A stretch of DNA of 64,000 nucleotides. Origin: Parcubacteria group bacterium (GTDB lineage Bacteria; Patescibacteriota; Minisyncoccia; Moranbacterales; UBA2206). How positions within the stretch are numbered: position 1 is the stretch's first letter; each line of letters begins with the position of its first letter. The stretch lies in contig JBAZUU010000005.1 in the NCBI GenBank assembly GCA_041661275.1, positions 72 to 64,071 on the forward strand, in the 5' to 3' direction. Below, piece by piece: positions 2,206 to 51,039 of the stretch. Position numbers and translations under genes: made by a program. Below the pieces are notes generated by a model, which was not told the origin of the DNA, made no database searches, and was given only the letters and a program-made list of their open reading frames with translations.

Positions 2206-2355
2206 CTCGCCAAAGGCGAGATAAAACTTTTTGAAAATTTATGGTTCAAAAATTTTCATTTCCAATTTTTGGAGCAAAATAATCCCGCTTTGCGGGATTG
2301 AGGCGATTTTTCCTCTCCCTCACCGAACATTCTTTTGCCACGCCAAAATAAAAAT

Positions 2356-3957: not shown

Positions 3958-3969
3958 ATTTAAAATCCG

Positions 3970-4042
3970 GGCGGTCACTGGGAGTCGGACCCAGATTCTC
4001 GGTACCACAAACCGATGTCTTAACCGTTAGACGATGACCGCC
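3970..4042 (-). tRNA. tRNA-His (GTG) with G-1
   Basis: G-1 + GCGGTCA acceptor, anticodon loop TTGTGGT, T-loop GGGTCCGACTCCC. Confidence 0.85.
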
Positions 4043-4061
4043 ATATTAAATTTTTTTCCAG

Positions 4062-4134
4062 TGCGCCGAGCAGGAATCGAACCTGCGACCAAAAGGTTAG
4101 AAACCTTCTGCTCTATCCACTGAGCTACCGGCGC
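4062..4134 (-). tRNA. tRNA-Arg (TCT)
   Basis: GCGCCGGTAGCTCAGTGGATAGAGC..., anticodon loop TTTCTAA, GGTTCGATTCC. Confidence 0.85.
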
Positions 4135-4153
4135 TTAAAATTGTAAAAAGTAG

Positions 4154-4226
4154 TGCGCCCACCAGGATTCGAACCTGGGACCGTTTGCTTAAGAGGCAAC
4201 TGCTCTACCAGCTGAGCTATGGGCGC
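4154..4226 (-). tRNA. tRNA-Lys (CTT)
   Basis: GCGCCCATAGCTCAGCTGGTAGAGC, loop CTCTTAA, GGTTCGAATCC. Confidence 0.8.
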
Positions 4227-21936: not shown

Positions 21937-23004
21937 ATGTTTGGATTAAGTTTTGGAAAAAACGTCTTTGTTGGCGTTGATATTGGAACTTCCGCTATTA
22001 AGCTGGTTGAAATGAGAAACGATTCCGGAAAACCCGTACTTTCCAATTATGCTTGGGTGTCTTTTGACGGATATTTCCAGCGAGACGAAAACAACTCCCA
22101 GCTATACGAAACAATTTTGCCGGAATATATCAAGAAGATGATAAAAGAGTCGGGGATGAAAGGCAGAAAGGCCTGCGTTTCCATCCCGGCTTTTGGCGGG
22201 CTCATCACCCTTATTGAATTCCCGCCAATGGCCAAAGAGGATATGGAACAAGCAGTGCGGTTTGAAGCTCATAAATATGTTCCCACGTCGCTCGACGAAG
22301 TAGTTTTAAGTTGGGATATCATAAATCAAGTCGATCCGGGAAATAAGGAATTGCCCGACGGAAAAACGCAAGTGCTTCTGGTGGCGGCTTCCCGAAACAA
22401 AGTCATCAGATATGAAAAAATGATAACTGATTCAGGACTGAAGCTGGACTCAATTGAAATAGAAGGTTTTTCCATAGTCAGGTCGCTTATTGGCAACGAT
22501 CCGGGAAACTTCATCATTGCTGACATTGGTTCGAGAGTTTGCAATATCCTTCTGGTGGAAAAAGGAATAATCAGGGCTAACAGAAATATCGATGCCGGAG
22601 GAGAAGATATTACCAAAATCATTGCCAAGTCGATGTCAGTGACTGAAGAGAGGGCGGAAAAACTGAAGATAAGCGGAAAAGATTTTTTTGCCGCTGATTC
22701 ATATATCAAGTTTCCGGCGCTGGAACTCATTTCCAATGAGATTATCCGGATAACAAACGCCTATTCCAAAGACGGGCAAAAACTAAAAATCGACAGCGTC
22801 ATCCTTTCAGGAGGAACGGCGAAACTTGCCGGGCTTTGCCAGTATCTGACGCAGGTGTTGAAAATCAAAACTATAGTAGGCAATCCGTTCGGTCGCGTGA
22901 GTTTTGACAAAAAATTGGAGCCGGCGATAAGAGATATGGGAACAAAGTTTTCTGTTTCTGTCGGTCTGGCCATTAAGGAAATGGAACAAATTAAAAATAA
23001 ATAA
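21937..23004 (+). CDS. pilM: Type IV pilus assembly protein PilM (actin-like ATPase)
   Basis: VGVDIGTSAIKLVEM ... ADIGSRVCNILLVEKG ... VILSGGTAKL ASKHA-fold motifs. Confidence 0.85.
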   Translation: MFGLSFGKNVFVGVDIGTSAIKLVEMRNDSGKPVLSNYAWVSFDGYFQRDENNSQLYETILPEYIKKMIKESGMKGRKACVSIPAFGGLITLIEFPPMAKEDMEQAVRFEAHKYVPTSLDEVVLSWDIINQVDPGNKELPDGKTQVLLVAASRNKVIRYEKMITDSGLKLDSIEIEGFSIVRSLIGNDPGNFIIADIGSRVCNILLVEKGIIRANRNIDAGGEDITKIIAKSMSVTEERAEKLKISGKDFFAADSYIKFPALELISNEIIRITNAYSKDGQKLKIDSVILSGGTAKLAGLCQYLTQVLKIKTIVGNPFGRVSFDKKLEPAIRDMGTKFSVSVGLAIKEMEQIKNK

Positions 23005-23017
23005 ATAATAAAAAAAT

Positions 23018-23542
23018 ATGGCTAACATAAATTTGAGTACGGGCGAGGTGAGGGAAAAAGTTGATCTTAGCGTGGGTCAGGGCGGACTCGTCGCGCTTAT
23101 TGTCGTTCTGGTTCTGATTCTTGTCCTCTATGGAGTGGAAATTGTCTGGGGTCAGCAAATGACCAAAGATACGGAAGCGATCCAGACGGAGTTCAGCACA
23201 AAGTATAAAAATCTTTCCCAGGGAAATCCGATAACGGTAGTTGATTTTCAAAACCGTCTGACAGCCGCCAAGAAAATGGCGAGTGAAGGCAGGGATATCA
23301 GAGGAAGTCTTCTGGAAATCGAAAAGTCGATCATTCCCGGGGTATATCTTAAGGGATACGAGTTTGACCAAAAGGCCGGAACCATAGTTCTTACCTGCAT
23401 AGGGGACAACTACAATCTGGCGGCCAAACAGATACTTAATTTCAAAAAATCAACTTATTTTTCCGATGCTTCGGGCGGTGAGACTACTTTTGTAGCTGAA
23501 ACAGGAAAGGTGGAATTCAAGGTTAATTTAACATTAAAATAA
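23018..23542 (+). CDS. pilN: PilN-like bitopic pilus assembly protein
   Basis: Single TM after a short N-terminus; synteny pilM-N-O. Confidence 0.5.
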   Translation: MANINLSTGEVREKVDLSVGQGGLVALIVVLVLILVLYGVEIVWGQQMTKDTEAIQTEFSTKYKNLSQGNPITVVDFQNRLTAAKKMASEGRDIRGSLLEIEKSIIPGVYLKGYEFDQKAGTIVLTCIGDNYNLAAKQILNFKKSTYFSDASGGETTFVAETGKVEFKVNLTLK

Positions 23543-23591: not shown

Positions 23592-24383
23592 ATGAAAGTT
23601 AAAATTCTTCTTCCACCGCTGATCATCGTTTCCTGCATCGCCCTTATGGTCTGGCTGGTTTATCCGGCCTATACCAACGGAGTTGATGGATGGAAAGAAA
23701 AGAGAGATAAGTTGACCAGTGAAAAAAATAATCTGGATGATGCCCAGAAGAAAGCGGAAAATGTTTCCCGGATGGTGGCTCAACTGGGAAGCAACAAGGT
23801 TGATCAGGATACCATCGCGACCTACATTCCGGACGAGCTGAAAGAAGAGGAAATAATAGACAATCTCAATTTTATCGCCAGCAACGAAGGGCTTTCGGTT
23901 GTCAAACTTTCCGTAAAACCCGAAACCGTCGTCCAGCAGGAGGTACCGACTGATATGTCGGGTAATCCTGTAGTTGATGTTTCTGGAGGAAATCCATCTG
24001 CCACAGAGGATGTTACCGTCAAGGCCAAAAACTATAATGTGGAATTTTCTGTCGTTGGAAACTATGAAAAAATAAAAAATGTTTTGGACAAGGTGTATAA
24101 GCTCAAGCGGTATAATAGCTTCAAGACGCTTGAGATCGCGGCCAATGAAACACCGGGGGCTGATGGAAAAAAAGCCGCTCCTACCGACAGTCTGAAAGCG
24201 GATATGATTTTGAGTTTTGACGTCCTTAAAAAGTTCAGCCAGACAGTCAGCATGAACAATCCTATCTTTTCACAAACCAGTTTTGATATGAAAGTGGCTC
24301 AGGAAATTCGGGACAAGAAAAGCGTCGATGTTTTGAAAATGAGCATTGATCAGGCCGGAAGGACTAATCCGTTTATTCCCTAA
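23592..24383 (+). CDS. pilO: PilO-like pilus assembly protein
   Basis: N-terminal TM, coiled-coil, synteny. Confidence 0.5.
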   Translation: MKVKILLPPLIIVSCIALMVWLVYPAYTNGVDGWKEKRDKLTSEKNNLDDAQKKAENVSRMVAQLGSNKVDQDTIATYIPDELKEEEIIDNLNFIASNEGLSVVKLSVKPETVVQQEVPTDMSGNPVVDVSGGNPSATEDVTVKAKNYNVEFSVVGNYEKIKNVLDKVYKLKRYNSFKTLEIAANETPGADGKKAAPTDSLKADMILSFDVLKKFSQTVSMNNPIFSQTSFDMKVAQEIRDKKSVDVLKMSIDQAGRTNPFIP

Positions 24384-26203: not shown

Positions 26204-26572
26204 ATGGCGAAAAAAATCCTTATAGTCGAAGACGATTCGTTTGTGATGGATATCTATCACACCAAGCTTACTCAGGAAGGTTTTAAAGTAAGCACCGCCG
26301 CCAATGGCATGGAAGCCTTGAAAAAACTGGAAAAAGAAAGGCCGGATCTGATTCTTCTGGACATCATTATGCCTTATGTGGACGGACTTGAAGTTTTGAA
26401 AAAGGTGAGAATGATGGAACAGATGAAAAGCGTTCCGATTATACTTCTCACCAACTTGAGCCAGAAAGAAGAAGTAGATGAGGGATTGGCGTTGGGGGCG
26501 AACGACTATCTCATTAAATCCCATTTTACTCCGTCAGAAGTTTTGGAAAAGATAAACAAATATTTAAAATAA
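26204..26572 (+). CDS. Single-domain response regulator (CheY-like receiver)
   Basis: ILIVEDD...DLILLDIIMP...K receiver motifs. Confidence 0.85.
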   Translation: MAKKILIVEDDSFVMDIYHTKLTQEGFKVSTAANGMEALKKLEKERPDLILLDIIMPYVDGLEVLKKVRMMEQMKSVPIILLTNLSQKEEVDEGLALGANDYLIKSHFTPSEVLEKINKYLK

Positions 26573-26575
26573 AAA

Positions 26576-27652
26576 ATGAGCACAGTTCACGCCGAACAAA
26601 GGATAAAAAATTTACTCCGCATGGTGGCGCAGGAAGGAGCGTCCGACCTCCATCTTGTCGTGGGAAGATATCCCACTTTTCGGGTTGACGGAAAATTAAT
26701 TCCTTTTAAAGAGGATAGCGTTCTTGCTCCGCCGGACACCAAAGCGATAAGCGAGGTGATTATGGGAGATGAAGCCAAAGCAAAATTTTTGAAAGAAGGC
26801 CAGATGGATTTTTCGTATAATTTCGAAGACAAAGCTCGTTTTCGCGTTAACGCTTTTTTCCAGCAAGGATATGTTAGCATCGCTTTCCGGCTCATTCCCA
26901 AAGAAATCAGGACGCTTCAGGAACTGAATATGCCGGAAGGACTTTATGAATTTACCAAGTTTTCCCAAGGACTTCTTTTGATCGTCGGTCCGGTAGGGCA
27001 TGGAAAATCAACCAGTCTCGCCGCTCTCATTAATGACATAAATCATAACCAGGAAAAGCACATCATAACCATCGAAGATCCGATAGAATATGTCTATGAA
27101 CAGGATAGATGCATCATCAATCAAAGGGAAATTTATCAGGATAGCCGTTCTTTTCAGGCGGCGCTGAAATCAGTTTTTCGCGAAGACGCCAACATTGTCC
27201 TTATCGGTGAGATGCGCGATCTGGATACGATCTCCACAGCAATGACGGCGGCGGAAACAGGGCATCTGATTTTAGCTACTCTCCACACCAACGATTCAGC
27301 GCAGACTATCGATCGTATTGTTGATGTTTTTCCGGCGCACCAGCAAAACCAGATCCGGTCGCAACTGGCCAATGTTCTTTTGGGAGTAGTGTCGCAGAGG
27401 CTCGTTCCACAGGTTGACGGCGGAAGAATCCCGGCGGTGGAGATAATGATAAAGAACCATGCTATTGAAAATCTCATCCGGGAGAATAAGTCGTATCAGA
27501 TGGACAATGTCATTGAAACCAGCTCGGGAAGCGGAATGATAACTCTCGATCGGTCGCTGACCAATCTGGTAAAACGCGGAGTGATTTCGGTTGATGCCGC
27601 TATGGCCTATGCCAAAGATCCGAAAAGTTTTCAGTCGCTTCTTAAATTCTGA
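26576..27652 (+). CDS. pilT: Twitching-motility retraction ATPase PilT
   Basis: GPVGHGKSTS Walker A; AIRNLIRE-type motif AIENLIRENK. Confidence 0.9.
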   Translation: MSTVHAEQRIKNLLRMVAQEGASDLHLVVGRYPTFRVDGKLIPFKEDSVLAPPDTKAISEVIMGDEAKAKFLKEGQMDFSYNFEDKARFRVNAFFQQGYVSIAFRLIPKEIRTLQELNMPEGLYEFTKFSQGLLLIVGPVGHGKSTSLAALINDINHNQEKHIITIEDPIEYVYEQDRCIINQREIYQDSRSFQAALKSVFREDANIVLIGEMRDLDTISTAMTAAETGHLILATLHTNDSAQTIDRIVDVFPAHQQNQIRSQLANVLLGVVSQRLVPQVDGGRIPAVEIMIKNHAIENLIRENKSYQMDNVIETSSGSGMITLDRSLTNLVKRGVISVDAAMAYAKDPKSFQSLLKF

Positions 27653-27680
27653 CCAGCTCTCTTGGGAAATATCAATTTTT

Positions 27681-27691
27681 TGTGGTATAAT
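27681..27691 (+). promoter_or_regulatory. Extended -10 promoter TGTGGTATAAT
   Basis: TGnTATAAT 17 nt before leader element copy 2. Confidence 0.4.
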
Positions 27692-27707
27692 AAAAACAGA
27701 CGGTATA

Positions 27708-27820
27708 ATCCCAGCACCAATTCCGACAAAGATTAGTGAAGTATAGAGATTAGTGCTCGGATTCGCCTGCGGCTTGACATCGAAATAAAAATAAATTAGT
27801 TTTGCGAATTGGTGCGGGAT
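27708..27820 (+). promoter_or_regulatory. Pilus-locus leader element copy 2
   Basis: ATCCCAGCACCAATTCC...ATTCGCCTGCGGCTTG...GAATTGGTGCGGGAT. 47 nt upstream of the pilC ATG 27867. Confidence 0.55.
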
Positions 27821-27866
27821 GCTCAATTTTGTAGCTACTCGCTTCGCTCGCAGACAAAATTGGCAA

Positions 27867-29078
27867 ATGCGATATAATTTTAAAGCTAAAACACAAGCAG
27901 GAGAAATAAAGGAAGGCACGATAGACGCGGCCAGTTCGGATGCCGCTCTTTCCATCCTTCAAAAGAATGGACTTTTTCCCATGAAGCTGGCTTCCGAAAG
28001 AGAAGGCGATTTTTTCACCAAGCTTTTTCTGAAATATTACGATCGGGTGACGGACAAGGAACAGATGATTTTTTTCAGGCAGTTAGCCATTCTCATCGAA
28101 GCTCGGGTGCCAATCATCGTTTCGCTTACCGCCATTGGTGAGCAATCAGTCAATCGCTATTTCAGCAAAGTAATCGCTGAAGTGGTCAATGATATAGATG
28201 ACGGAATGTCTCTTTCTGATGCTATGACGCGCCACAAGGATGTTTTTTCCAATCTGGCAATCAATATAATCCGAGCCGGTGAAACGTCCGGAAATCTGAA
28301 AAAATCAGTGGAATATGTGGCGGATAATATAGAAAAAAACTACAACCTGACCAGCCGGGTCAGAAGCGCCTTGATATATCCGGGTGTCATCCTTTTTGTC
28401 TTTTTCATTATCGGATTTATAACCATCTCTTTCATCTTGCCCAAACTGACGGAAATGATAAAAAGCATGAATGTGGAAGTGCCCTGGTACACCAAGCTGG
28501 TGATTGGAATCGGAGACTTCATGTCTTCCTACTGGTGGGCGGCGGCAATAATGATTATCGGATTTATCGGTGGCATTCTCTATTATCTGAAAACTCCTGA
28601 TGGCAAAAAAGAATGGGATTATATAAAGCTGAAACTGCCGCTTGTGGGAAATGTTTTCAGAGGAATATATATCGCCCGATTTGCAGAAAACCTCTCCGTG
28701 CTTCTTGTGGGCGGCATTCCCATTATTCGCGCTCTTACTGTGGTTAGCACGGTTATCAATAATTCGCTCTATGAAGATTTGCTTTTAAAGACGGCCGAAC
28801 AGGTGAAAGTTGGAGGATCAATGAGCGACACTCTGAAAAAAAGCTCTCTTATCCCGCCTGTCGTGGCGAATATGGTGAAGATCGGCGAAGAATCGGGGCA
28901 GATAGACTCAGTGCTGACTCACGTTGCTCGATTTTATGACCAGGAAACGGAGATAACGACAAAAAATTTGTCAACACTCATCGAACCGATTTTGATGGTA
29001 GTTATTGGTTTCGCGGTCGGGTTTATGGCGATTGCCATTTTGTTGCCGATATATAACGTGGCCAGCCAAATAAAATAA
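27867..29078 (+). CDS. pilC: Type IV pilus platform protein PilC (GspF family)
   Basis: Two T2SSF repeats. Start moved to ATG 27867 because the track start 27819 lies inside the leader element. Confidence 0.85.
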   Translation: MRYNFKAKTQAGEIKEGTIDAASSDAALSILQKNGLFPMKLASEREGDFFTKLFLKYYDRVTDKEQMIFFRQLAILIEARVPIIVSLTAIGEQSVNRYFSKVIAEVVNDIDDGMSLSDAMTRHKDVFSNLAINIIRAGETSGNLKKSVEYVADNIEKNYNLTSRVRSALIYPGVILFVFFIIGFITISFILPKLTEMIKSMNVEVPWYTKLVIGIGDFMSSYWWAAAIMIIGFIGGILYYLKTPDGKKEWDYIKLKLPLVGNVFRGIYIARFAENLSVLLVGGIPIIRALTVVSTVINNSLYEDLLLKTAEQVKVGGSMSDTLKKSSLIPPVVANMVKIGEESGQIDSVLTHVARFYDQETEITTKNLSTLIEPILMVVIGFAVGFMAIAILLPIYNVASQIK

Positions 29079-29118
29079 AAGATAGTTGATTAAGATAGAA
29101 AAATAAAAATAAAAAACT

Positions 29119-29258
29119 AGAAAGCGAGGTGTATTATGGCTAAAAAGAAAACAAAAAAGAAAAAAAAGAAAGGGTTTACCCTGATTGAACTTTTGATCGT
29201 TATCGCGATCATCGGAATTCTGGCTTCGATCGTTTTAGTGAGCTTGAGTAGCGCGAGA
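29119..29258. repeat. 140-bp segment identical to 29599-29738 (pilin 5' region)
   Basis: Includes RBS, Lys-rich leader and conserved pilin N-terminus. Confidence 0.9.
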
Positions 29259-29504
29259 CAAAAGGCCAAGGATGCAGAATTTAAGTCAGCAGTTTCAAGT
29301 TTGGTTGCGGCCTATGTTATCTATTGTGATGACACTGTCAATCAGACACAGCCTACTGATCCTCCATCATTAACGTCGACTATAACGACCTGTGCTGACG
29401 GAGCACTCGCAGGCACTGCGGCTCCAACGGCAGCTACCGGAGCCTTGAATTGTACGGGCGCTACTTTTACAGAAACCGGGGTCACTTCTTTTACCGGATG
29501 CTAA
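29136..29504 (+). CDS. pilA: Type IV pilin (major pilin candidate 1)
   Basis: Leader MAKKKTKKKKKKG | FTLIELLIVIAIIGILASIV (class III signal, Glu+5). Confidence 0.8.
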   Translation: MAKKKTKKKKKKGFTLIELLIVIAIIGILASIVLVSLSSARQKAKDAEFKSAVSSLVAAYVIYCDDTVNQTQPTDPPSLTSTITTCADGALAGTAAPTAATGALNCTGATFTETGVTSFTGC

Positions 29505-29598
29505 TTTAACTTAAAAATTTTTATGCTTGCTGATTGATTTGAAAATCGGCAAGCAAATAAAATTCATTAAAGATAAAATAGTAACTAAATATTTATAT

Positions 29599-29738
29599 AG
29601 AAAGCGAGGTGTATTATGGCTAAAAAGAAAACAAAAAAGAAAAAAAAGAAAGGGTTTACCCTGATTGAACTTTTGATCGTTATCGCGATCATCGGAATTC
29701 TGGCTTCGATCGTTTTAGTGAGCTTGAGTAGCGCGAGA
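29599..29738. repeat. Second copy of the pilin 5' repeat
   Basis: Identical to 29119-29258. Confidence 0.9.
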
Positions 29739-30014
29739 ACCAGAGCCAATGTTGCAAAGGCAAAATCTATCGCGTCAAGTATGGGAGCCGCAGTTGTTAT
29801 GGAATGTGACAAGGTCGCTGCCGATAGAGCTGTTATTACTTCTACTGATACAGCTTTTGTACCCACACTAACAGTGGCTAATATAAACACGATTTGTGGA
29901 GCCGCTGCTGGAACAGTTGCTCTTACTACAGCATTTGGGGCTTCTGCTCCGAACTGCTCGGCGCAATGGATAGCAGAAGGAATAGGTGTAAGTTTTACCG
30001 GAACTGGTTGCTAA
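29616..30014 (+). CDS. Type IV pilin (paralogue 2: identical N-terminus, divergent C-terminus)
   Basis: Same 45 N-terminal residues as 29136, then an unrelated C-domain. Confidence 0.8.
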   Translation: MAKKKTKKKKKKGFTLIELLIVIAIIGILASIVLVSLSSARTRANVAKAKSIASSMGAAVVMECDKVAADRAVITSTDTAFVPTLTVANINTICGAAAGTVALTTAFGASAPNCSAQWIAEGIGVSFTGTGC

Positions 30015-30187
30015 CTGCTCTATAAAGAGAGATAAAAGTGGCCAGATACCTTTTTGCGTTTTTGCGGCGAACCAATAATCAGGTTCAAAAATAGAAAAAT
30101 TATATATTTTCCAGCCGTCCCGCAATTTGGGGCGGTTTTGGTTTTTGCCTTAGAGAAGCTATTTTTTGTAGAAGAAAGGACAAAAAT

Positions 30188-30216
30188 TTGACAGAACATG
30201 ATGATTTGTGTATAAT
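30188..30216 (+). promoter_or_regulatory. Sigma70-type promoter TTGACA-17-TATAAT
   Basis: Perfect consensus hexamers 30 nt upstream of the DUF4143 gene. Confidence 0.45.
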
Positions 30217-30245
30217 TAGTACATAGATTAACTAAAAAGTATGTA

Positions 30246-31388
30246 TTGATAATACACAAATTTATGATTAAACGCTTTTTTAGCCCTCCTGAGCCATTAT
30301 TAGAGTCAAACAAAGTGCTTATTATTTATGGGCCGAGAAGGGTCGGAAAAACGACACTGCTTAAGGAACTGCTCGATAACACATCATTAAGATATCGTTT
30401 TGACTCCGGAGAAAATATTCGAGTTCAGGAAGTGCTTAGCTCAAATGATTTTGAAAAAATCAAAGAATATGTTGGAAACAACGAGTTGATAGCGATTGAC
30501 GAAGCGCAACAAATTCCTAATATTGGGATGGGACTAAAAATTATCATCGATCAGGTGCCGAAGATAAAAGTCGTAGTGACAGGGTCATCAAGCTTTGAAT
30601 TGTTTAATCAGATCGGAGAACCGCTCGTGGGAAGAAAAAAAACAATAACTTTGTTTCCGTTCGCGCAAGTGGAACTTGCCAAGATATATAATACTTTTGA
30701 TCTTGAAGGCAGGCTGAAAGAATTTCTCATATATGGAACCTACCCGGACGTATATCTCGCGAAGACGAAACATGAAAAGGAGACGCTCCTCAACGAAATC
30801 GTTGACGCTTATCTTTTGAAGGATGTTCTAGCGCTTGACGATGTGAAAAAATCACGTACACTTGTTGATTTGGTAAAATTGCTCGCGCTTCAAGTGGGAA
30901 GCGAGGTGTCGCTGAATGAACTGGCGCAACAGTTGAGCGCCAATGTACGTACCATCGAAAAATATCTTGATATATTGGAGAAAGGGTTTGTAATTATTTC
31001 TCTTTCAGCTTTGAAGCGCAATTTGCGCAATGAAATACGTGATAAAAGAAAATATTATTTTTACGATACTGGAGTGCGCAACGCTTTACTCTCGCAATTC
31101 AATGACGTGACGCTTCGTAATGATGTGGGCGCGCTGTGGGAGAATTTTCTTTTTATCGAGCGACTAAAAAAATGTTCCTATCGGTCGATGTTTGCCAACA
31201 GATATTTTTGGCGCACCTATGATCAAAAAGAACTGGATCTCATTGAGGAATATGATGGAATTTTTCATGCTTATGAATTCAAATGGAAAAAAGAAACTGC
31301 GCCGTATCCGAAAAAATTTATAGAAAGTTATCCACAATCTTCATTTGAAGTAATAAACAAGGATAATTATCGTGGTTTCGTGGCGTAG
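30246..31388 (+). CDS. AAA+ ATPase with DUF4143 domain
   Basis: Walker A GPRRVGKTT, DEAQ Walker B, DUF4143-like C-terminus. Paralogue at 51136. Confidence 0.75.
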   Translation: MIIHKFMIKRFFSPPEPLLESNKVLIIYGPRRVGKTTLLKELLDNTSLRYRFDSGENIRVQEVLSSNDFEKIKEYVGNNELIAIDEAQQIPNIGMGLKIIIDQVPKIKVVVTGSSSFELFNQIGEPLVGRKKTITLFPFAQVELAKIYNTFDLEGRLKEFLIYGTYPDVYLAKTKHEKETLLNEIVDAYLLKDVLALDDVKKSRTLVDLVKLLALQVGSEVSLNELAQQLSANVRTIEKYLDILEKGFVIISLSALKRNLRNEIRDKRKYYFYDTGVRNALLSQFNDVTLRNDVGALWENFLFIERLKKCSYRSMFANRYFWRTYDQKELDLIEEYDGIFHAYEFKWKKETAPYPKKFIESYPQSSFEVINKDNYRGFVA

Positions 31389-31489
31389 GTAAGATAATAC
31401 TGGGATAATTGGTTTCTTTGGACATGTTTAATCTAATTTGTGCATATCATTGTTTTTCATTCTTCTATTTTATGGTATAATTTGGACAG

Positions 31490-31996
31490 ATGAAAACGAA
31501 GAGAAAAAACAAAAAAGGCGTTACGCTTATTGAGCTGATGACTGCTATTGCCGTTATGGGGATTTTGGCGTCCATTGTTACGATAAGTCTTTCGGCGGGA
31601 AGACAAAAAGCCCAGGCGTCTTCGGTTCTCCAGTCAATGACGAGTGTCGCGCCGCTGGCGTATAAGTGTCTGACCAAGGGTACTTCGGACGCAAAAACCA
31701 GAATTAATATTGGCGCGTCGGGAAGTGATATTTGTTTAAATAGCGCTAGCGCCGTCGAACTTTCCAGCTGGCCGGATATAACAAGCACCGGTTGGAGTTA
31801 TGGTGGTGATTTTTACTGGTGCAAGGTAAATTATTCCGGAACGACTCATCCTACCGGATCTAATGTGTGTAATTATGCTGACGGCACTTGTGGCGGGGAC
31901 TGGACTAATAAGAAATTTTGTTATGGAATCAATAACACCACAACCGATCAGCATATCTGGTGTACTGATCAAGGATGCCAAAAAGAGGGATTTTAA
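31490..31996 (+). CDS. Type IV pilin-like protein
   Basis: MKTKRKNKKG | VTLIELMTAIAVMGILASI prepilin signal. Confidence 0.65.
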   Translation: MKTKRKNKKGVTLIELMTAIAVMGILASIVTISLSAGRQKAQASSVLQSMTSVAPLAYKCLTKGTSDAKTRINIGASGSDICLNSASAVELSSWPDITSTGWSYGGDFYWCKVNYSGTTHPTGSNVCNYADGTCGGDWTNKKFCYGINNTTTDQHIWCTDQGCQKEGF

Positions 31997-32056
31997 TAGT
32001 TTGATATAAGAACCTTAAGTGGCTTAGGTTACTTAGGATTAAATGAAAAAACAAAA

Positions 32057-32860
32057 ATGATTATTATATTGTTTGCAATTCTCGGACTCATTATTGGCAG
32101 TTTTTTGAATGTTCTGGTTTTCAGGACGAAAATTGAAGATTCACTTTTAGGGCGGTCATATTGTCCAAAATGCAAAAAGAAAATTGACTGGTATGACAAT
32201 ATTCCGGTTTTGAGTTTCATTATTCTTGGCGCCCAATGTCGCCAGTGCCGCCAGAAAATTTCCTGGCAGTATCCGATCGTAGAAATAATAACGGCCATTG
32301 TTTTCGCACTGGTTGCTTCTCGTTTTTTTTCCGTTTTTGATCCGGCCACCTGGACGATTACTTTCTATTACTTGGTAACATTTTCCCTGCTCATCGCCAT
32401 TTTGGTCTACGATTATCTCTATATGGAAATTCCCGGCATAATTTTGTGGCCGGCCATCGGTTTTGTCGTCGCCTTCGGCCTCATTTTTGACTGGACGCAA
32501 AAAGATACTTTTTTTGACATTTTGGAACTAAACATTTATTCCGGAGCGCTGGCGGCTTTTTTAGCATTTCTTTTTTTCTTTCTACTGGTTACGCTTTCCA
32601 AAGAGAGATGGATGGGGATGGGAGATGCCTATCTCGTTATTCTTCTCGGGCTTTTTGCCGGCTGGCCAAAGATTTTCCTGGGACTATTTCTGGCTTTTTT
32701 TCTGGGATCGATTTATGGTATCACTCTTATCGCTATGAAAAAGAAAAATATGAAAAGCCAGGTGCCCTTTGCCCCATTTTTGATTATCGGGACAGCCATT
32801 GCCGTTTTTGCCTATAGCCCGATCACGATCTGGTATTTTAATTTATTCAGCGCTTACTAA
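32057..32860 (+). CDS. pilD: Prepilin peptidase PilD (A24 family)
   Basis: CPKC...CRQC zinc-binding N-terminus, polytopic, catalytic-Asp region GMGDAYL. Confidence 0.85.
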   Translation: MIIILFAILGLIIGSFLNVLVFRTKIEDSLLGRSYCPKCKKKIDWYDNIPVLSFIILGAQCRQCRQKISWQYPIVEIITAIVFALVASRFFSVFDPATWTITFYYLVTFSLLIAILVYDYLYMEIPGIILWPAIGFVVAFGLIFDWTQKDTFFDILELNIYSGALAAFLAFLFFFLLVTLSKERWMGMGDAYLVILLGLFAGWPKIFLGLFLAFFLGSIYGITLIAMKKKNMKSQVPFAPFLIIGTAIAVFAYSPITIWYFNLFSAY

Positions 32861-32862
32861 AA

Positions 32863-33411
32863 ATGAGAAAGAAATTTTTTAGAAGAAATGCTTCCGGAGT
32901 GACGCTGGTCGAACTGGTTATTACCATGAGCATCATGGGAATTTTGGCGGTCATAGCCGTAGTTTCCATGAGTGAAACGAGAACAGCGTCAAAAGTGGAG
33001 GCGGCGCAAAAAGAAGTGGCGTCAGAGATAACTCTGGCCAAAGCCTATGCCCTTCAGGGAAAAACCCAAAGCGGAACAACGCCCTGTGGATATGGGGTAT
33101 ATTTTACAGCGACTGACAAATATCGAATTTATTACAATTATCAGAAAAGCGGAAAAACTTGTGACGAAACCAACACCGATTCCGATTATTGCCATTATAG
33201 AAATGGTTCTTCGGGAAAATTAGATGAAAAAGCGCTGTCCAACGGAATAACAGCGACTTCCGGCACAGATATATATTTCACCGTTCCCAATGCCCGGGCT
33301 CATAACGCAGGGGGTGAATTTAGCGGATCGGTGGATATCGGCCTGACTGTCGGAAGCATAAATAAAAACGTGTCCGTCAGCGGTTCAGGACTGGTTACGA
33401 TAGGAGAGTAA
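32863..33411 (+). CDS. Minor pilin / pseudopilin
   Basis: G|VTLVELVITMSIMGILAV prepilin N-terminus. Confidence 0.65.
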   Translation: MRKKFFRRNASGVTLVELVITMSIMGILAVIAVVSMSETRTASKVEAAQKEVASEITLAKAYALQGKTQSGTTPCGYGVYFTATDKYRIYYNYQKSGKTCDETNTDSDYCHYRNGSSGKLDEKALSNGITATSGTDIYFTVPNARAHNAGGEFSGSVDIGLTVGSINKNVSVSGSGLVTIGE

Positions 33412-33417
33412 AAACCA

Positions 33418-33984
33418 ATGAAAAAAATAATCAAAAACAAAAAATACCATGGGTTTTATCTGGTGGAAGCAATCATCGCCTTGTTTTTGATCACGGTCGG
33501 ACTTCTGGTGACTGTCGATCTGCTTTCCAGCACGATGAAAAATACCTTTGAAGATCGCGACAATATTACGGCTGTCCTTTTGGCGCAGGAAGGCGTGGAA
33601 CTGGTGAGAAACCTGCGGGATAATAATTTTGCCTTAGGGTTAGAAGCTTTTGAAGCACCCAGATTTCCGTCGACAACTAATCTATGCAGTATAGACAAAA
33701 ATAGCCCCAGGCTTTTTTGTGGCGCTGAAAAGAATTTTAATCTGAATTTAAGTAACAAGTTTTATGTTACCGGCTCGGGTAGCAAATTTAAGAGAAGAGT
33801 AGCTATCCAATATAGCGGCGACGGTACTGCCAGCGATCCGACCAACGATACTGCTGTTACCGTTACAGTAATTTGGAAAGGGGACATGTCGTCTGATTTT
33901 CCTGCTGACGGCACGCTGGCTACCAAATGTACGGCGGCCAAAGGTTGCGCTTATGTCGAAGTTCACCTAACCAGATGGAATTAG
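33418..33984 (+). CDS. Minor pilin (PilV-like)
   Basis: G|FYLVEAIIALFLITVGLL. Confidence 0.65.
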   Translation: MKKIIKNKKYHGFYLVEAIIALFLITVGLLVTVDLLSSTMKNTFEDRDNITAVLLAQEGVELVRNLRDNNFALGLEAFEAPRFPSTTNLCSIDKNSPRLFCGAEKNFNLNLSNKFYVTGSGSKFKRRVAIQYSGDGTASDPTNDTAVTVTVIWKGDMSSDFPADGTLATKCTAAKGCAYVEVHLTRWN

Positions 33985-34040: not shown

Positions 34041-34616
34041 ATGGAAAAAATTTTTGAAAATAAAAAACGTTACAAAGGGTTTTCGCTGGTGGAAATGATT
34101 TTGGTCGTGGCGATTTCCGCTATCATTGCTTTGGCTGTCGGACAAATATTTTTGACCGGGATGAAAACTTCCGAAAGAAACAAGGAAATGCAAAAAAACC
34201 TGGAGGAAGGCCGGTCGGCAATGGAAATGATGGCCAAAGATATCAGGATGAGTAAACTGACTAAGGGCGACTCCACTAATATTTTTATGTATAACAATTC
34301 ACAAGGCAAATGTATCAGCTATCAGTTTGATAACACCAAGAAAAAACTTGGGGTGGATCGAATTTATCCCGATGCAGACGTAACTGACCCCAATAAGCTT
34401 ACTTGTAAAACTACTGCCACTTCTTATTCTTACAGTGATTTAACTTCAGTAAATATTACCGGCAATTTTTTTATACCATTTGAAACAAACAGAACAACCC
34501 CCCCTTATTCAATCGGTCGGGCGACTATCCGGATGACGATGGGAGACGGGACGGACATGGAAGAGACTCTGCAGACATCGATTTCATTCAGAGATTATGA
34601 GGATATTTTGCAATAA
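34041..34616 (+). CDS. Minor pilin (PilW-like)
   Basis: G|FSLVEMILVVAISAIIALAV. Confidence 0.65.
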   Translation: MEKIFENKKRYKGFSLVEMILVVAISAIIALAVGQIFLTGMKTSERNKEMQKNLEEGRSAMEMMAKDIRMSKLTKGDSTNIFMYNNSQGKCISYQFDNTKKKLGVDRIYPDADVTDPNKLTCKTTATSYSYSDLTSVNITGNFFIPFETNRTTPPYSIGRATIRMTMGDGTDMEETLQTSISFRDYEDILQ

Positions 34617-46530: not shown

Positions 46531-49500
46531 ATGAAAATTAATTTCCAAAATAAAATAATCAGAATCATTTTCGCTCTCGCGGTGTCTTTGGAAATGGCCA
46601 GTCTTCTTTTTGATTTTTCTTTCGCGCAAGTGGCTGGCACCGTAAGCACTCCGAGAAAATTGGACGTGTCGGCCGTTATCCTTAACAACGAAAATAAAAT
46701 AATTGCCAATGGAGAATATGATGTTCGTTTTTCTCTCTATCAAACTGATCGGACTGACAATACGGCAACTGAGGGAACGCCGCTTTGGCAGGAGACGCAA
46801 AAAGTGACTATCTACAACGGCATCCTTCACGCGTTTCCCGGAACGGTCACGCCACTTCCGACAACTGTTAATTTTTCAAGCGGAGAATTTTATGTCGGGA
46901 TAAAAATAGGAACTGATTCGGAGATGATTCCGCGAAAAAGGATTGGCGCTGTTCCTCTGGCTCTCGATTCTTTTTCGGTTGGCGGCGCGACTGTCGGAAC
47001 AGCCGAAGGAAATATTTTGAAATTAGGTGTCGGTGGCAAAGTAGATATTACCAGTCTTCCGACAGGAACTTCCGGAAAGAAACTGGTACTAGCTAATGAC
47101 TCAAGATTATCTACCGGAAAAATTACTGTCAGCGGACAAAAATATATCACTGCTTCCGGAATGAAACTGACGCTAAAACAGATCGACCTGACATCGAATG
47201 TTACCGGAATTCTACCAGTAGCCAATGGCGGAACGGGCGTTGCCTCATATGCTGTCGGCGATATGCTTTATGCCAGCGCCGCGGCAACTCTTGCGAAACT
47301 TCCTGTCGGCGCTGACGGGAAAGTGCTGACGGTGGCAGGCGGAGTTCCGACTTGGGCAGCAGCAACCGGAACGGCCTATACCGCGGCGGCCGGAAATTTG
47401 CTTCAACTGGTTGGCACGGAATTTTCTTTCAAGCAAGGAGCTCTGGCTGACGGCAAGCTTTGCACATATGATTTGGCTAACAACCGATTGGTGTGCAATA
47501 CCGATCCAAGCGGAGTGGCCTATACTGCCGGATCAGGACTAACCCTGGCAGCAACGGAATTCAAATTGGGCGGGACAATCACGGAAAATACCAGCCTCAA
47601 TCTTTATGGCGCGGCTGACAATCGGGATTTTAGATTCTATAATTCCAATTCCGCTCAAGAAATATTATTCCTCGACAGTTCTACTGGAAGAGTCGGAATT
47701 GGAAAAACTGATCCCGGAACAGCGCTCGATGTTAACGGCGTCATCACTGCAACGGGAGGCAGCTCTACCGATTGGAATAACGCTTTTACCTATCGCCTGA
47801 CTTCCGCTTCCGGATCAAGTCCGCTTACCCTTACTCTGGCAGTCAACGCTCTTACCGGTTCTATTTCTGACGCTACCACTCTTGCCAAGGGTGTGGCTTC
47901 TTTTTCCGACACTGATTTTGATGTAGCGGTCGGAGCGGTAACAATAGACTCAACGATTGCCAGAGATTCGGAACTGCACAACTCTGTTACTCTTGCTGGT
48001 CTTGGTTATCTTTCAATTGATGGCTCGCAAGTCATCACGGCCGGACAAATCAACATCGGCACTACGCAGGTGACAGGGATTCTTGCTGTTAATAACGGCG
48101 GAACAGGAACTGGCACCACGCCAGCTTCTGGACAGATTCTTATCGGTAATGCTTCTGGTGGATATGAAGTTTCTACTATTACAGATGGTACTGGCATATC
48201 CATTGCTGAAGGTTCAGGCACAATTACTATCGCCGCCGCCCTTGGCACGGCTATCGATACTACCGAAATCACTGATGGCACCATTTTACCAACAGATCTT
48301 AATTCAACCAATAGTCCGGATGTTTCCAACTATGTCCTGACTTATGATAATGCTACCCAACACTTTACCTGGAAAGATGTGTCCGGAGCGGGAGCGGTGG
48401 ATACGAGTGGCACTGCTTCTAACTATATTCCCAAGCTTCAAGATTCCAATACTCTGACCAATTCCGTCATCTATGAAACCGGGGGAATGTTGGGCATCGG
48501 AAAAACCGATCCCGGAACCGCCCTTGACGTCAATGGCGTCATCACTGCCACTGGCGGAACAAGCACTAATTGGAACAGCGCTTATTCGGCGATGCACAAC
48601 TCGGTTACGCTTGACACGGCCACCCACGATTATCTTTCTTTGGCTACCCAGGTTATCACTTTGGGGCAAATTGATATTTCTGATGACACCAACTTGGGAG
48701 TGGGCGGAACATTTTTGCAAAGAGTCGGTGATACTATTTCCCTTCGGGAAGGAGCTATGGGCGAGGGAAAACTGTGTACCTTCAACGCTTCCGGACAATT
48801 GGAATGCAATACCGATTCCGGAACTGTCGGACACGCGTCAGCTACTATTTTGGATTCGGCTTCAATTAACTTTTCCATCATCGGACAGGAAATTTCCGGC
48901 GTAGTCCTGCCGGCGGGAGTGGATCATAATTCTTTGGCTAATCTCACAACGGGTGACGCGCACACGCAATACGCTCTCCTGGCTGGCCGCGCCAACGGAC
49001 AAACTCTTATCGGCGGTACGGGACCAACTGATACTCTCACCCTTCAAGCTACTTCCGGCAATGCCACTACCGGTATTGGAATGAATTTCAATGTCGGCAA
49101 CAACGGAGCAATAAAAGCAATGACCATTCTTAATTCCGGATATGTCGGCATTGGGACGACAAATCCACTTCAAAAACTTTCCATCAGCGGAACATTGGGA
49201 ATTGCCGCGAGCAATCTGCAATACTACACAATTTTTTCCGGCGGGAACCAGACGATGGATATTAATTATATTCTTCCGGCCGGAACCGGAGCAGCCGGAC
49301 AATATTTGAAAGTTGATGGAGTAGGTGCTCTTTCTTGGGCAACAATAATGGGCGGTACCGGTGGCATCGGAACAGTAACGAGCGTGGCAACCGGAAACGG
49401 ACTGACTGGCGGACCGATCGTCGATAGTGGAACAATATCGATAAATCTTCTTAATGTCGGAACAACTTCACCAACCACTTCTTCTAATTCTGGCCTGGAG

Positions 49501-51039
49501 TTTGTCGGAGCATCGAACCAGTTAGGCCTTCTTCACGGCTGTTCTAACACTCAAGTGTTAAGTTGGGACAGTGTCGCCCAGGTGTGGAAATGCGATTCAG
49601 TTTCCGGCATTGGCGGGTTGTCCGGAACGGGAACGGACGGATATATTACGAGATATACGAGTACCAACACTTTAGGTAATTCCGTACTTTTTGAAACTGG
49701 TGGAAACGTGGGAGTAGGGACAACGGATCCACTTTCACTTTTTTCTGTCGGCAGTTCATCGCAATTTCAGGTCACTTCCTCCGGTTATGTTTCTATCCCT
49801 CTCGGAATTGGGACATCTCAACCATCGCTATATTTCGGCTCGGACACCAATACCGGCCTCTGGTCGGCTGGCGCGGATATTTTCAATATTTCCGCCGGTG
49901 GCGTAGAAATGTTTAGAGCGACTGCAACTAATGTGACAGTTGGTGATGCCAGCGCAGTTACCGCTATGACCATTGATGCCAATGGGCTGGTGGGAATCGG
50001 CACGACTGCGCCGGCTTATGCTCTCGACGTCAAAGGAAGCGGAACGGGGATTATCGCCCGGTTTACCAGTAACAATACTTCCGGCTGTTCAGTGGCAGAC
50101 GGAGGAACAATCACATGCACGTCTGACGTGAACCTCAAAAAAAATATCGCTGACTCCGGATACGGTCTTGACGCTGTCTTGAGCTTGCGTCCGGTGGAAT
50201 ACAATTGGAAATATCAGTCGGACGGCACCACAAAAACCATTGGCTTTATCGCCCAGGATGTGGAAGGTGTCATGCCTCAACTGGTTATCACTGACGCGGA
50301 AGGATACAAAGAGCTGAACACTATCGGCATGATTCCGGTTTTGGCGAAAGCGATTCAGGAACAACAGACAATGATCAATGAACAAGGAACTCGCCTCATC
50401 GGCGAACAGGCAGTGAACAGTGAACAGGAACAAATGCTGGCGACTCTAAACAACAAAGATGTTTCTATTGATGAAAAAATAAATGTGGTCGGAGCCAGCC
50501 TAAGCCAGATTTCAACCAAACAAACTACCGATGAAACTAAGATTGCGACACTGGAAACAAAAGTTACTAATCTTGAACAACAGATGGCGATGCTGGAAGA
50601 AAAATACAAAGCGGTCATTGATTTTGCCGCGGTGCTCGAAACGGACAAGTTGGTATATAAAGACGCGTATGGCAATGTCAATATTTTAGGCGGCTCTCTT
50701 GTGGCAGATGGTGTTGTGGCTGGCGCTTTCACGGTCAAAGTGGCAGACGAGACAGCGAGAACTATTGGCACAGAGGCTATACATATATATACAGATGAAA
50801 ATCTGGACGGAATTGATGATAAATATCCGGGCAACAATGGAAAATCAGTAGAGGTTTTGACTACCGCTGTCACGGCTACATCTAAGATATTCATCACTCC
50901 GCAAGGGGACGCGGGGGGTTCGGTTTGGACGGAAAAGAAACTTGATGGGGAAGGAAATTATACCGGCTTTATTATTCACGTCAGCAAAGTGGTGGAGAAA
51001 GATATTAAAATTGATTGGTTTATAATAGAAGAAAAATAG
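46531..51039 (+). CDS. Giant secreted tail-fibre-like repeat protein with C-terminal peptidase-S74 intramolecular-chaperone domain
   Basis: Signal peptide; repeated G[IV]G[KT]TDP/GIGTTNP...L.V.G units; C-terminal SDVNLKKNIADSGYGLDAVLSLRPVEYNWK...TIGFIAQDVEGVMPQLV (S74 Ser-Lys signature) followed by a coiled coil. Confidence 0.8.
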   Translation: MKINFQNKIIRIIFALAVSLEMASLLFDFSFAQVAGTVSTPRKLDVSAVILNNENKIIANGEYDVRFSLYQTDRTDNTATEGTPLWQETQKVTIYNGILHAFPGTVTPLPTTVNFSSGEFYVGIKIGTDSEMIPRKRIGAVPLALDSFSVGGATVGTAEGNILKLGVGGKVDITSLPTGTSGKKLVLANDSRLSTGKITVSGQKYITASGMKLTLKQIDLTSNVTGILPVANGGTGVASYAVGDMLYASAAATLAKLPVGADGKVLTVAGGVPTWAAATGTAYTAAAGNLLQLVGTEFSFKQGALADGKLCTYDLANNRLVCNTDPSGVAYTAGSGLTLAATEFKLGGTITENTSLNLYGAADNRDFRFYNSNSAQEILFLDSSTGRVGIGKTDPGTALDVNGVITATGGSSTDWNNAFTYRLTSASGSSPLTLTLAVNALTGSISDATTLAKGVASFSDTDFDVAVGAVTIDSTIARDSELHNSVTLAGLGYLSIDGSQVITAGQINIGTTQVTGILAVNNGGTGTGTTPASGQILIGNASGGYEVSTITDGTGISIAEGSGTITIAAALGTAIDTTEITDGTILPTDLNSTNSPDVSNYVLTYDNATQHFTWKDVSGAGAVDTSGTASNYIPKLQDSNTLTNSVIYETGGMLGIGKTDPGTALDVNGVITATGGTSTNWNSAYSAMHNSVTLDTATHDYLSLATQVITLGQIDISDDTNLGVGGTFLQRVGDTISLREGAMGEGKLCTFNASGQLECNTDSGTVGHASATILDSASINFSIIGQEISGVVLPAGVDHNSLANLTTGDAHTQYALLAGRANGQTLIGGTGPTDTLTLQATSGNATTGIGMNFNVGNNGAIKAMTILNSGYVGIGTTNPLQKLSISGTLGIAASNLQYYTIFSGGNQTMDINYILPAGTGAAGQYLKVDGVGALSWATIMGGTGGIGTVTSVATGNGLTGGPIVDSGTISINLLNVGTTSPTTSSNSGLEFVGASNQLGLLHGCSNTQVLSWDSVAQVWKCDSVSGIGGLSGTGTDGYITRYTSTNTLGNSVLFETGGNVGVGTTDPLSLFSVGSSSQFQVTSSGYVSIPLGIGTSQPSLYFGSDTNTGLWSAGADIFNISAGGVEMFRATATNVTVGDASAVTAMTIDANGLVGIGTTAPAYALDVKGSGTGIIARFTSNNTSGCSVADGGTITCTSDVNLKKNIADSGYGLDAVLSLRPVEYNWKYQSDGTTKTIGFIAQDVEGVMPQLVITDAEGYKELNTIGMIPVLAKAIQEQQTMINEQGTRLIGEQAVNSEQEQMLATLNNKDVSIDEKINVVGASLSQISTKQTTDETKIATLETKVTNLEQQMAMLEEKYKAVIDFAAVLETDKLVYKDAYGNVNILGGSLVADGVVAGAFTVKVADETARTIGTEAIHIYTDENLDGIDDKYPGNNGKSVEVLTTAVTATSKIFITPQGDAGGSVWTEKKLDGEGNYTGFIIHVSKVVEKDIKIDWFIIEEK

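Follow-up and report, generated by a model that had tools for sequence, protein, structure and literature searches.

The locus considered here raises the question of how two neighbouring type IV pilin genes can agree letter by letter in their 5' part and be so dissimilar in the remainder of their coding sequences, past codon 41, that only about 50% of the nucleotides match. Both genes, hereafter p1 and p2, lie in a 64,000-nucleotide (nt) stretch of a Parcubacteria group bacterium genome (contig JBAZUU010000005.1), which in its entirety is referred to as the window. In our judgement, the probable overall explanation is that two ancient pilin paralogues lying in tandem underwent a partial gene conversion. 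The features on which the argument draws are the following.

29136..29504, plus strand: p1, prepilin of 122 amino acids (109 mature, four Cys), candidate major pilin (PF07963/TIGR02532)
29616..30014, plus strand: p2, prepilin of 132 amino acids (119 mature, four Cys), putative ancient paralogue of p1 with a p1-type 5' module
29118..29258, plus strand: 5' module, copy 1 (141 nt), comprising GAGGTG at 29126-29131, the ATG at 29136, the leader MAKKKTKKKKKKG and mature residues 1-28 (alpha1-N helix), with the PF07963 N_methyl match on residues 8-34
29598..29738, plus strand: 5' module, copy 2 (141 nt), identical to copy 1, probable recipient of the conversion
29259..29597, plus strand: segment B, consisting of the coding region of the p1 globular domain, the stop codon and the p1-p2 spacer

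The two copies of the 5' module form a direct repeat which is letter-perfect over 141 nt at a spacing of 480 nt. A 44-nt core of this repeat occurs exactly twice in the window while no occurrence is expected from shuffled sequences. Each copy contains 18 nt preceding the ATG with the Shine-Dalgarno (SD)-like hexamer GAGGTG (at 29606-29611 in copy 2), the start codon and a total of 41 codons, which specify a 13-residue leader and the 28 mature residues FTLIELLIVIAIIGILASIVLVSLSSAR. The original prediction of an identical tandem 5' cassette is thus borne out as a real and exact direct repeat, although some of its measures need correction: the repeat, given there as 140 bp (29119-29258 and 29599-29738), extends one base further at its 5' end, the leader counts 13 residues from Met1 to Gly-1 rather than 12 (its nine Lys were counted correctly), and the mature sequence comprises 28 instead of 32 residues. 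Upstream of position -18 the identity of the two genes breaks off sharply and the flanks of the two copies differ. Segment B has no second copy in the window according to blastn; it is the piece which would be deleted or duplicated if a crossover joined the two repeats.

Judged by their sequences, both p1 and p2 appear to be complete type IV prepilins. As the N-terminal criterion for a type IV pilin we used a hydrophilic leader ending in Gly-1, followed by Phe+1, Glu+5 and about 21 hydrophobic residues. Both proteins start with the leader MAKKKTKKKKKKG continued by FTLIELLIVIAIIGILASIVLV, and Gly-1, Phe+1 and Glu+5 are present. The two open reading frames (ORFs) score 41.7 and 42.8 bits with PF07963 (cut-off 21.2) as well as 38.8 and 40.0 bits with TIGR02532 (cut-off 16.3). 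Each protein contains four Cys, one of which is the last residue, and Cys64, Cys106 and Cys122 (p1 numbering) are invariant across 38 homologues. Using an alignment of 38 sequences, AlphaFold2 yields a model of p1 with a predicted local distance difference test (pLDDT) score of 84.6 which consists of a helix spanning residues 16-65 and four strands in the shape of a lollipop. The best matches of this model in a Foldseek search of the PDB are pilins (4d40, 5v23 at a probability of 0.94, 4noa and 8tum); a classification based on structure was rejected, however, as these matches are statistically weak. Gly, Ala, Ser and Thr (GAST) make up 47% of p1 and p2 compared to 23% of PilB. Such a GAST-rich composition serves as a criterion for the recognition of major pilins in Saccharibacteria (PMC11623550). 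Of the features canonical for type IVa (T4a) major pilins, p1 shows the position directly 3' of pilC, the GAST-rich composition and Cys in the C-terminal region; the short leader is absent, since that of p1 comprises 13 residues with nine Lys. T4a pilin leaders typically have a length of 5-7 residues.

Past the repeat, p1 and p2 turn out to be diverged homologues. Their C-terminal domains share 37% identity over 87 amino acids (E about 1e-9, 40 bits) with four aligned Cys, and both proteins end in ..FTG(TG)C. Over the full length, BLASTP reports 57% identity for 129 aligned positions. The earlier statement that the 3' halves are unrelated therefore holds at the DNA level but not at the protein level. 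When p2 was used as the query of a database search, a separate p2-type family emerged (P0123-P0127), whose members share the motif ..AR(T/S)RANVAKAKSIASSM... The nearest relative of the p1 C-domain is P0001 in L051 (67.5% identity). For the comparison of relatives, pilC was used as synteny anchor. The closest PilC relatives among GTDB representatives belong to metagenome-assembled genomes (MAGs) of Candidatus Moranbacteria/Moraniibacteriota and are at most 64% identical, while PilC relatives in metagenome contigs reach up to 77% (L050 being the nearest). P0123, which is the second pilin after pilC in L085 (L085_p2), has a C-domain sharing 55% identity (96 bits) with that of p2, and the PilC of L085 shares only 48% identity with that of the window. 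Not only in L085 but also in L087 and L088 the second pilin after pilC is p2-type. Because of this p2 orthologue next to so distant a PilC, and of the p2-type second pilins in L087 and L088, the arrangement of pilC, p1, p2 and pilD appears to predate a deep split in the group, and the globular domains of p1 and p2 appear, from these comparisons, to have diverged anciently. The tandem pair of L050 (PilC 77% identical) was also considered as orthologous to p1/p2 and was rejected as its second gene is a p1-type duplicate; it constitutes an independent example.

The 5' part has a different history. All of codons 1-41 are identical between p1 and p2 (41/41), whereas past codon 41 the same codon is used in only 11 of the 33 columns in which the residue is the same, so that synonymous sites are saturated. 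The tandem pilins of five relatives (L008, L009, L010, L012 and L013) match in 26-27 of the 28 N-terminal mature residues and yet in no more than 70-72 of the corresponding 84 nt, values equal to those found between genomes. Since N-termini which are nearly identical as proteins differ to this extent as DNA, constraint on the protein fails to explain the DNA identity of p1 and p2. In addition, the untranslated 18 nt preceding the ATG are identical. Within the 84 nt, p1 and p2 of the window agree completely (84/84) while the window agrees with L085_p2 in 67/84; in the 3' segment this order is reversed, p2 being nearer to L085_p2 (55%, 96 bits) than to its neighbour p1 (37%, 40 bits). The 5' and 3' parts thus appear to be phylogenetically incongruent, which is the pattern by which concerted evolution is recognised. 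The leaders point in the same direction. Those of all five p2-type relatives (P0123-P0127) are short, namely MKKQKG, MKNNKG, MKG, MKNIKKG and MKQIKKG, and in L005, L014, L050, P0003 and many others a poly-Lys leader is joined to a globular domain of the p1 type. The 5' parts of tandem pilins in relatives compare as listed below.

L050: about 152 nt with two synonymous mismatches between the tandem pilins, then abrupt divergence; C-domains 40% identical
L072: 138 nt exact, with near-identity on to about 220 nt; SPAdes-style NODE contig
L065: 93-98% between neighbours; four tandem copies
L063: 94 nt exact
L087: 79/84 between the tandem pilins
L085: 63/84 between the tandem pilins, unconverted
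L008-L013: 70-72/84 between the tandem pilins, unconverted

Across these loci, homogenisation of the 5' part seems to be episodic and lineage-specific, as concerted evolution predicts. Larger arrays occur as well. In L065 four tandem pilins are encoded on the reverse strand (F1 codons at 8, 505, 1011 and 1527), and L068 contains three tandem pilins of the same family (4685, 5166 and 5637), two of which have globular domains of 87% identity and differ in their leaders, one being poly-Lys and the other unrelated. This hints at a recombination of 5' and 3' modules both ways. Comparison of codons and protein suggested L068 to be a clean reverse mosaic, but the ungapped DNA comparison is ambiguous due to indels and the case was dropped, leaving a weak pointer.

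The evolutionary part of our explanation we hold to be very probable on these comparisons: an old split of the globular domains and a recent homogenisation of the 141 nt at the 5' end by intrachromosomal gene conversion, most probably of p1 over p2. The globular domains would have separated long ago, and a recent conversion within the chromosome would have rendered uniform the module made up of SD sequence, start codon, poly-Lys leader and alpha1-N helix. That the 5' module of p1 would most probably have been copied onto p2 is suggested because all five p2-type relatives possess short leaders and poly-Lys leaders accompany p1-type domains. Upstream, the tract would end 18 nt before the ATG, where homology stops, with the 3' end of pilC on the one side and the spacer 3' of p1 on the other. 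Downstream, it would presumably end where the coding sequences are too diverged for heteroduplex formation.

If so, both prepilins would share the translation-initiation region, the signal for membrane insertion and cleavage by PilD, and the helix of the filament core. They would probably be translated with similar efficiency and inserted with the N-terminus inside; a strongly basic leader fits the positive-inside rule. PilD would be predicted to cut both leaders after Gly13, and one machinery would probably accept p1 and p2 interchangeably since the alpha1-N helix, identical in both, forms the subunit-subunit interface in the filament core. The likeliest outcome would be two distinct surfaces, displayed either in a mixed filament or in alternative filaments. 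Co-assembly of p1 and p2, as judged by analogy, is conceivable though somewhat doubtful.

Several points weigh against this reading. The direction of the conversion depends on five p2-type relatives, the closest of which has a C-domain identity of 55%. A foreign 3' half taken up by transformation, with the crossover located in the conserved 5' region, would give the same pattern. The repeat length of 141 coincides with the maximum k of the assembler MEGAHIT (141), inviting the suspicion of a graph-path artefact, and the copy number of segment B, i.e. of the 480-bp unit, as well as the exact linkage rest on assemblies and are not strictly proven. The AlphaFold2 model of p2 (pLDDT 75) shows the same long helix as that of p1 with a globular part of low confidence (pLDDT 59-73), and the Foldseek E-values of p1 are weak (0.09-1.5). 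Finally, expression of p2 is uncertain; a hairpin separates the two genes, and the promoter-like match ahead of p2 is a weak one (9/12). The two hairpins near the 3' ends of p1 and p2 are as follows.

29524..29555, plus strand: intergenic hairpin between p1 and p2, 12-bp stem, 8-nt loop, no U-tract, minimum free energy -23.2 kcal/mol, z -3.0
30113..30147, plus strand: intrinsic-terminator-like hairpin with T-run 3' of p2, 10-bp stem, six GC pairs, tail TTGGTTTTTG

The former is not called a terminator by a consensus terminator scan; it is possibly a partial terminator or an element stabilising the mRNA between p1 and p2.

The alternative which survives best, albeit quite unlikely, is horizontal import: the globular part of a resident pilin copy would have been replaced by foreign pilin DNA, for instance through uptake by the pilus/competence system, so that the identical 5' ends represent resident sequence. 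It accommodates the different histories of the 5' and 3' modules, and the near-invariant mature N-terminus would supply homology across the family. Moreover, the two L068 copies mentioned above (C-domains 87% identical, leaders different, 5' DNA only 83% identical) indicate that the modules are recombinable in either direction. Yet import needs a prior recent duplication of p1, of which no duplicated trace is found either 5' of position -18 or downstream, and with a p2-type second pilin being the conserved ancestral arrangement (L085, L087 and L088) it is the 5' end and not the 3' half that is misplaced. Furthermore, the GC contents of the 3' parts are alike (0.47 in p2 and 0.49 in p1).

Very unlikely, in our opinion, is a programmed pilin variation in which the 5' cassette acts as recombination anchor for moving alternative 3' domains into an expression site, as known from Neisseria pilE/pilS or Moraxella tfpQ/tfpI. 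The sharp module boundary with its evidence of recombination, the relatives with two to four tandem pilins and homogenised 5' ends, and the reported diversification of pilin globular domains in Patescibacteria (PMC11623550) are what such a system would lead one to expect. Both copies, however, are full-length with the same ribosome binding site (RBS) and start codon, leaving neither a silent donor nor a single expression site. The search for silent pilin 3' cassettes which the original prediction had recommended, carried out with both 3' halves by tblastn and blastn, reveals none in the 64-kb window; likewise, no 5'-truncated or promoterless pilin cassette is present there, as tblastn of the C-domains retrieves only the reciprocal gene (E about 5e-8) with the next match at E of at least 0.03. 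Pilin variation in Neisseria depends on a G-quadruplex (G4), and no G4 motif (G3+N1-7 x4) is present on either strand within 27001-32000. The repeats are direct instead of inverted, no inverted repeats bracket p1/p2, and there is no adjacent invertase, the sole recombinase among the ORFs scanned being a large serine recombinase (2335-3957) at a distance of 25 kb. In addition, the p1-p2 order is kept in the very distant genomes L085, L087 and L088, which suggests a stable two-gene arrangement.

The comparison with the two model systems agrees with this. In Neisseria, as here, gene conversion operates between pilin paralogues with a conserved N-terminal and a variable C-terminal region, but there it is the variable 3' region of a single expression locus that is overwritten, the donors being silent copies which are promoterless and truncated at the 5' end (PMC4023411), whereas here the conserved 5' region is affected and both genes are complete. 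Moraxella tfpQ/tfpI with Piv is characterised by inverted 3' segments, inverted repeats and an adjacent invertase, while p1 and p2, both on the plus strand, lack these. Because both genes are complete, located on the same strand and equipped with identical RBS and start codon, an exchange of the 3' parts between p1 and p2 changes nothing, and a crossover between the direct repeats deletes or duplicates p1 without swapping a domain. Of the antigenic-variation proposal, the tandem pilins with shared 5' module, diverged 3' domains and recombination at the module boundary remain; a device for the swapping of C-domains does not, for want of silent cassettes, G4 and inverted repeats and with both genes complete. 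As far as the sequence allows a judgement, a programmed variation system is not supported, and the pattern looks like an ordinary evolutionary process in pilin families.

To an origin in assembly, be it that a de Bruijn path through a node of k-mer length or a merging of strain variants produced the tandem duplicate or its perfect identity, we attach hardly any probability. The suspicion is fed, apart from the value of k, by three MEGAHIT k141 contigs which break precisely at the repeat because its length equals the largest k of the program: L004 (27,196 bp) stops at the end of copy 1, L002 (621 nt) consists exactly of the repeat, segment B (the 3' part of p1 with the spacer) and the repeat again, and L003 (49.8 kb) begins at copy 2. 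Besides, the number of passes through segment B is not fixed by a short-read graph. In L002, though, segment B leads from the unique 3' sequence of p1 and the spacer into the repeat and must consequently lie upstream of a repeat copy. Independent public assemblies of the same strain show zero mismatches to the window, and L001, obtained from another sample, covers without a break the 3' end of pilC, copy 1, p1 and 79 nt of copy 2. The longest contig on record for both PilC (MFA6048081.1) and p2 (MFA6048083.1) is one of 77,435 bp, and between the two accession numbers there is space for precisely one gene. The different upstream flanks of the two copies likewise speak against an artefact, as does the fact that this architecture recurs, with tracts of different length and a few mismatches, in the unrelated assemblies L050, L072, L063 and L065. 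Since the unique spacer continues into copy 2, the two copies have different upstream flanks and unrelated assemblies show tracts of other length, we regard the agreement between 141 and the maximum k as coincidence. An assembly artefact was also the objection which the original prediction had raised against itself; the independent assemblies argue against it.

A recent duplication of the whole gene, after which selection would have diversified the exposed domain very rapidly while purifying selection held the 5' part, has a next to negligible probability. In its favour, diversifying selection is classically found on the surfaces of pilins, and the 28 N-terminal residues are near-invariant in the family. 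Against it, the 3' synonymous sites are saturated (11/33 codons the same at conserved residues as opposed to 41/41 in the 5' part), the 18 untranslated nt are identical too, relatives under purifying selection still diverge by about 15% in the DNA of the 84 nt considered above, and the p2 C-domain has an orthologue in L085, where PilC shares only 48% identity with that of the window.

Partial gene conversion being the preferred explanation, the conspicuous leader of the converted module deserves attention. Its description as atypical applies with respect to textbook T4a pilins but not within the family, as 57 of the 120 nearest cluster representatives (90% clusters) have leaders with at least six Lys, 23/120 have at least nine and 8/120 have exactly MAKKKTKKKKKKG. 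The comparison with candidate phyla radiation pilins called for by the original prediction hence identifies the poly-Lys leader as a trait of the lineage and not as a peculiarity of the locus. Among the 120 representatives the leader has a median length of 10.5 residues (range 4-38); the alternative state in the family consists of short leaders, for example MKKG or MKNKKG, and lengths vary by whole codons (MAKKKKTKKKKG, MAKKKNKKKKG and others). The longest A run in the leader region is 8. Slippage in the A-rich leader as a source of phase variation was considered and rejected, as the leaders of L067, L068, L074, L076 and L078 are, on inspection of three frames, all in frame with ordinary starts, and no frameshifted poly-Lys remnants are found in these five. 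The A-rich start possibly aids the efficiency of translation. A literature search on lysine-rich prepilin leaders found no paper describing them. In some relatives a GC-rich insert interrupts the leader (L007 7304-7768, L034 7273-7662, P0003 and P0046), for example MAKKKTKK-PARRGG-KKKG and MAKKKTKK-PARSATHSVAGG-KKKKG.

p1 and p2 are embedded in a complete type IV pilus locus of an uncultured, ultra-small member of the Patescibacteria which is closest to Moranbacteria. The locus has the gene order pilM, two small ORFs, pilB, receiver, pilT, pilC, p1, p2, an AAA_14/DUF4143 ATPase, a pilin-like gene, pilD and three further pilin-like genes.

21937-23004, plus strand: pilM (TIGR01175, E 4e-47)
23018-23542 and 23592-24383, plus strand: two small ORFs, the second with only a faint PilO (PF04350) match, found on the orthologous gene in L004/L050
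24409-26118, plus strand: pilB, assembly ATPase (NCBIfam TIGR02538 / TIGR01420 matches for pilB/pilT)
26204-26572, plus strand: response-regulator receiver (CheY-like, stand-alone)
26576-27652, plus strand: pilT, retraction ATPase (NCBIfam matches as for pilB)
27819..29078, plus strand: pilC, T2SSF platform protein, immediately 5' of p1 (PF00482, E 8e-58)
30246-31388: AAA_14/DUF4143 ATPase, between p2 and the third pilin-like gene
32057..32860, plus strand: prepilin peptidase PilD, A24 peptidase with N-terminal domain (PF06750, E 6e-31; PF01478, E 1e-10)
31490-31996, 32863-33411, 33418-33984 and 34041-34616, plus strand: pilin-like genes, minor pilin candidates (N_methyl matches)

To the last four genes correspond the further tblastn matches of the N-terminus at 31493, 32866, 33421 and 34041. 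The order pilB-receiver-pilT is the same in L004, L050, L051 and L054, i.e. the receiver gene is kept between pilB and pilT in the four loci of relatives covering that interval, and this conservation suggests a phosphorylation-dependent control of extension and retraction.

The AAA_14/DUF4143 gene is preceded by a perfect sigma-70 consensus (TTGACA-17-TATAAT, 30188-30216), which is overlapped by a 22-nt inverted repeat (30204-30225 / 30240-30261). At this position the gene is missing in the relatives L050 and L085. Other relatives carry different genes next to their pilins, namely a nucleotidyltransferase/HEPN pair in L054 and a 23S_rRNA_IVP/bAvd-like gene between pilC and p1 in L051 and L054. 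The surroundings of the pilin genes resemble a hot spot for the insertion of small accessory genes. Another paralogue of the AAA_14/DUF4143 ATPase (51136-52383) is located between two giant ORFs. The first of these (46531-51039, 1502 amino acids) contains a Peptidase_S74 (endosialidase-chaperone) domain near residue 1200 and the second (52942-56724, 1260 amino acids) gives a weak right-handed beta-helix match; both may encode tail-fibre-like surface proteins. Further upstream, the large serine recombinase ORF (2335-3957; Resolvase, Recombinase and Zn ribbon) abuts four tRNA genes on the minus strand (3874-4226; Arg-TCG, His, Arg-TCT and Lys-CTT), the first of which it overlaps. The MEGAHIT contig of 27,196 bp which ends at repeat copy 1 has its calculated start at window position 2063, just upstream of this recombinase. 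The region 2063/2335-4226 may mark where an integrated element ends, or may contain a further repeat.

Of the experimentally characterised systems, PilE1/PilE2 of Streptococcus sanguinis appear to be the nearest analogue of p1/p2. There, too, two major pilins are encoded in one pil locus of an organism devoid of an outer membrane (PMC6497953, PMC10628169), their N-termini are identical (PMC6497953), and one machinery with one PilD serves both. The leaders of S. sanguinis pilins, with 8-18 residues and the longest ones in PilE1/E2, exceed those of model T4a pilins, as is the case here, although the poly-Lys leader distinguishes p1/p2 from PilE1/PilE2. PilE1 and PilE2 are about 80% identical with virtually identical folds, in contrast to about 56% for p1/p2 and 37% for their globular domains, and for PilE1/PilE2 a heteropolymer has been demonstrated while co-assembly of p1 and p2 is only predicted. 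PilA1-PilA6 of Haloferax volcanii similarly combine a near-fully conserved hydrophobic N-terminal (H) domain with different C-terminal domains, and each of them can be the major pilin with one machinery (PMC4371748). They differ in being archaeal proteins, in their processing by PibD and in the lack of co-regulation with the genes for pilus biosynthesis (PMC4371748); moreover, their conservation is described at the protein level, whereas the 5' modules of p1 and p2 are identical at the DNA level. PilA1/PilA2 of the Saccharibacteria strain TM7x resemble p1 and p2 as small, GAST-rich, lollipop-shaped and T4aP-like major pilins with fast-diverging C-terminal domains, but their genes do not share a locus, and each of the two is part of a pilus system of its own with its own ATPases (PMC11623550), while p1 and p2 share one locus and one set of pilB, pilC and pilD.

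Concerted evolution of paralogues by partial gene conversion is familiar from the duplicated tuf genes of enterobacteria. Shared with that type of evolution are the identity within the genome exceeding that between genomes for part of the gene, the sharp boundaries and the occurrence in several lineages. Compared to concerted evolution in general, conversion of p1/p2 is limited to the module comprising translation start, signal and core helix, the rest being highly divergent. p1/p2 would hence be a textbook case of partial gene conversion which involves no new mechanism and offers a clean comparative example.

Beyond this, the direct repeats possibly allow deletion or duplication of the 480-bp unit. 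A more far-reaching proposal, which we consider rather unlikely, is that RBS, leader and alpha1-N helix constitute a portable expression-and-assembly module in Moranbacteria-like Patescibacteria, repeatedly copied among tandem pilins together with the poly-Lys leader and selected to equalise synthesis and processing of host-attachment pilins with distinct surfaces; by deletion or duplication of 480 bp the repeats could also toggle between p1+p2 and p2 only. If this were true, an episymbiont would possess a recombinational on/off switch for one pilus surface.

For work on the family, the separate histories of the two parts mean that phylogenies of pilin arrays, orthology calls and short-read assemblies, which break at such repeats, should treat the 5' and 3' parts separately. 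Type IV pili are nearly universal in Patescibacteria, and cultivated Saccharibacteria use them for host binding and competition (PMC11623550). If both pilins are made and are assembled via their identical front end, a single machinery may give this lineage mixed or alternative filaments, which would bear on the host range and attachment of uncultured episymbionts.

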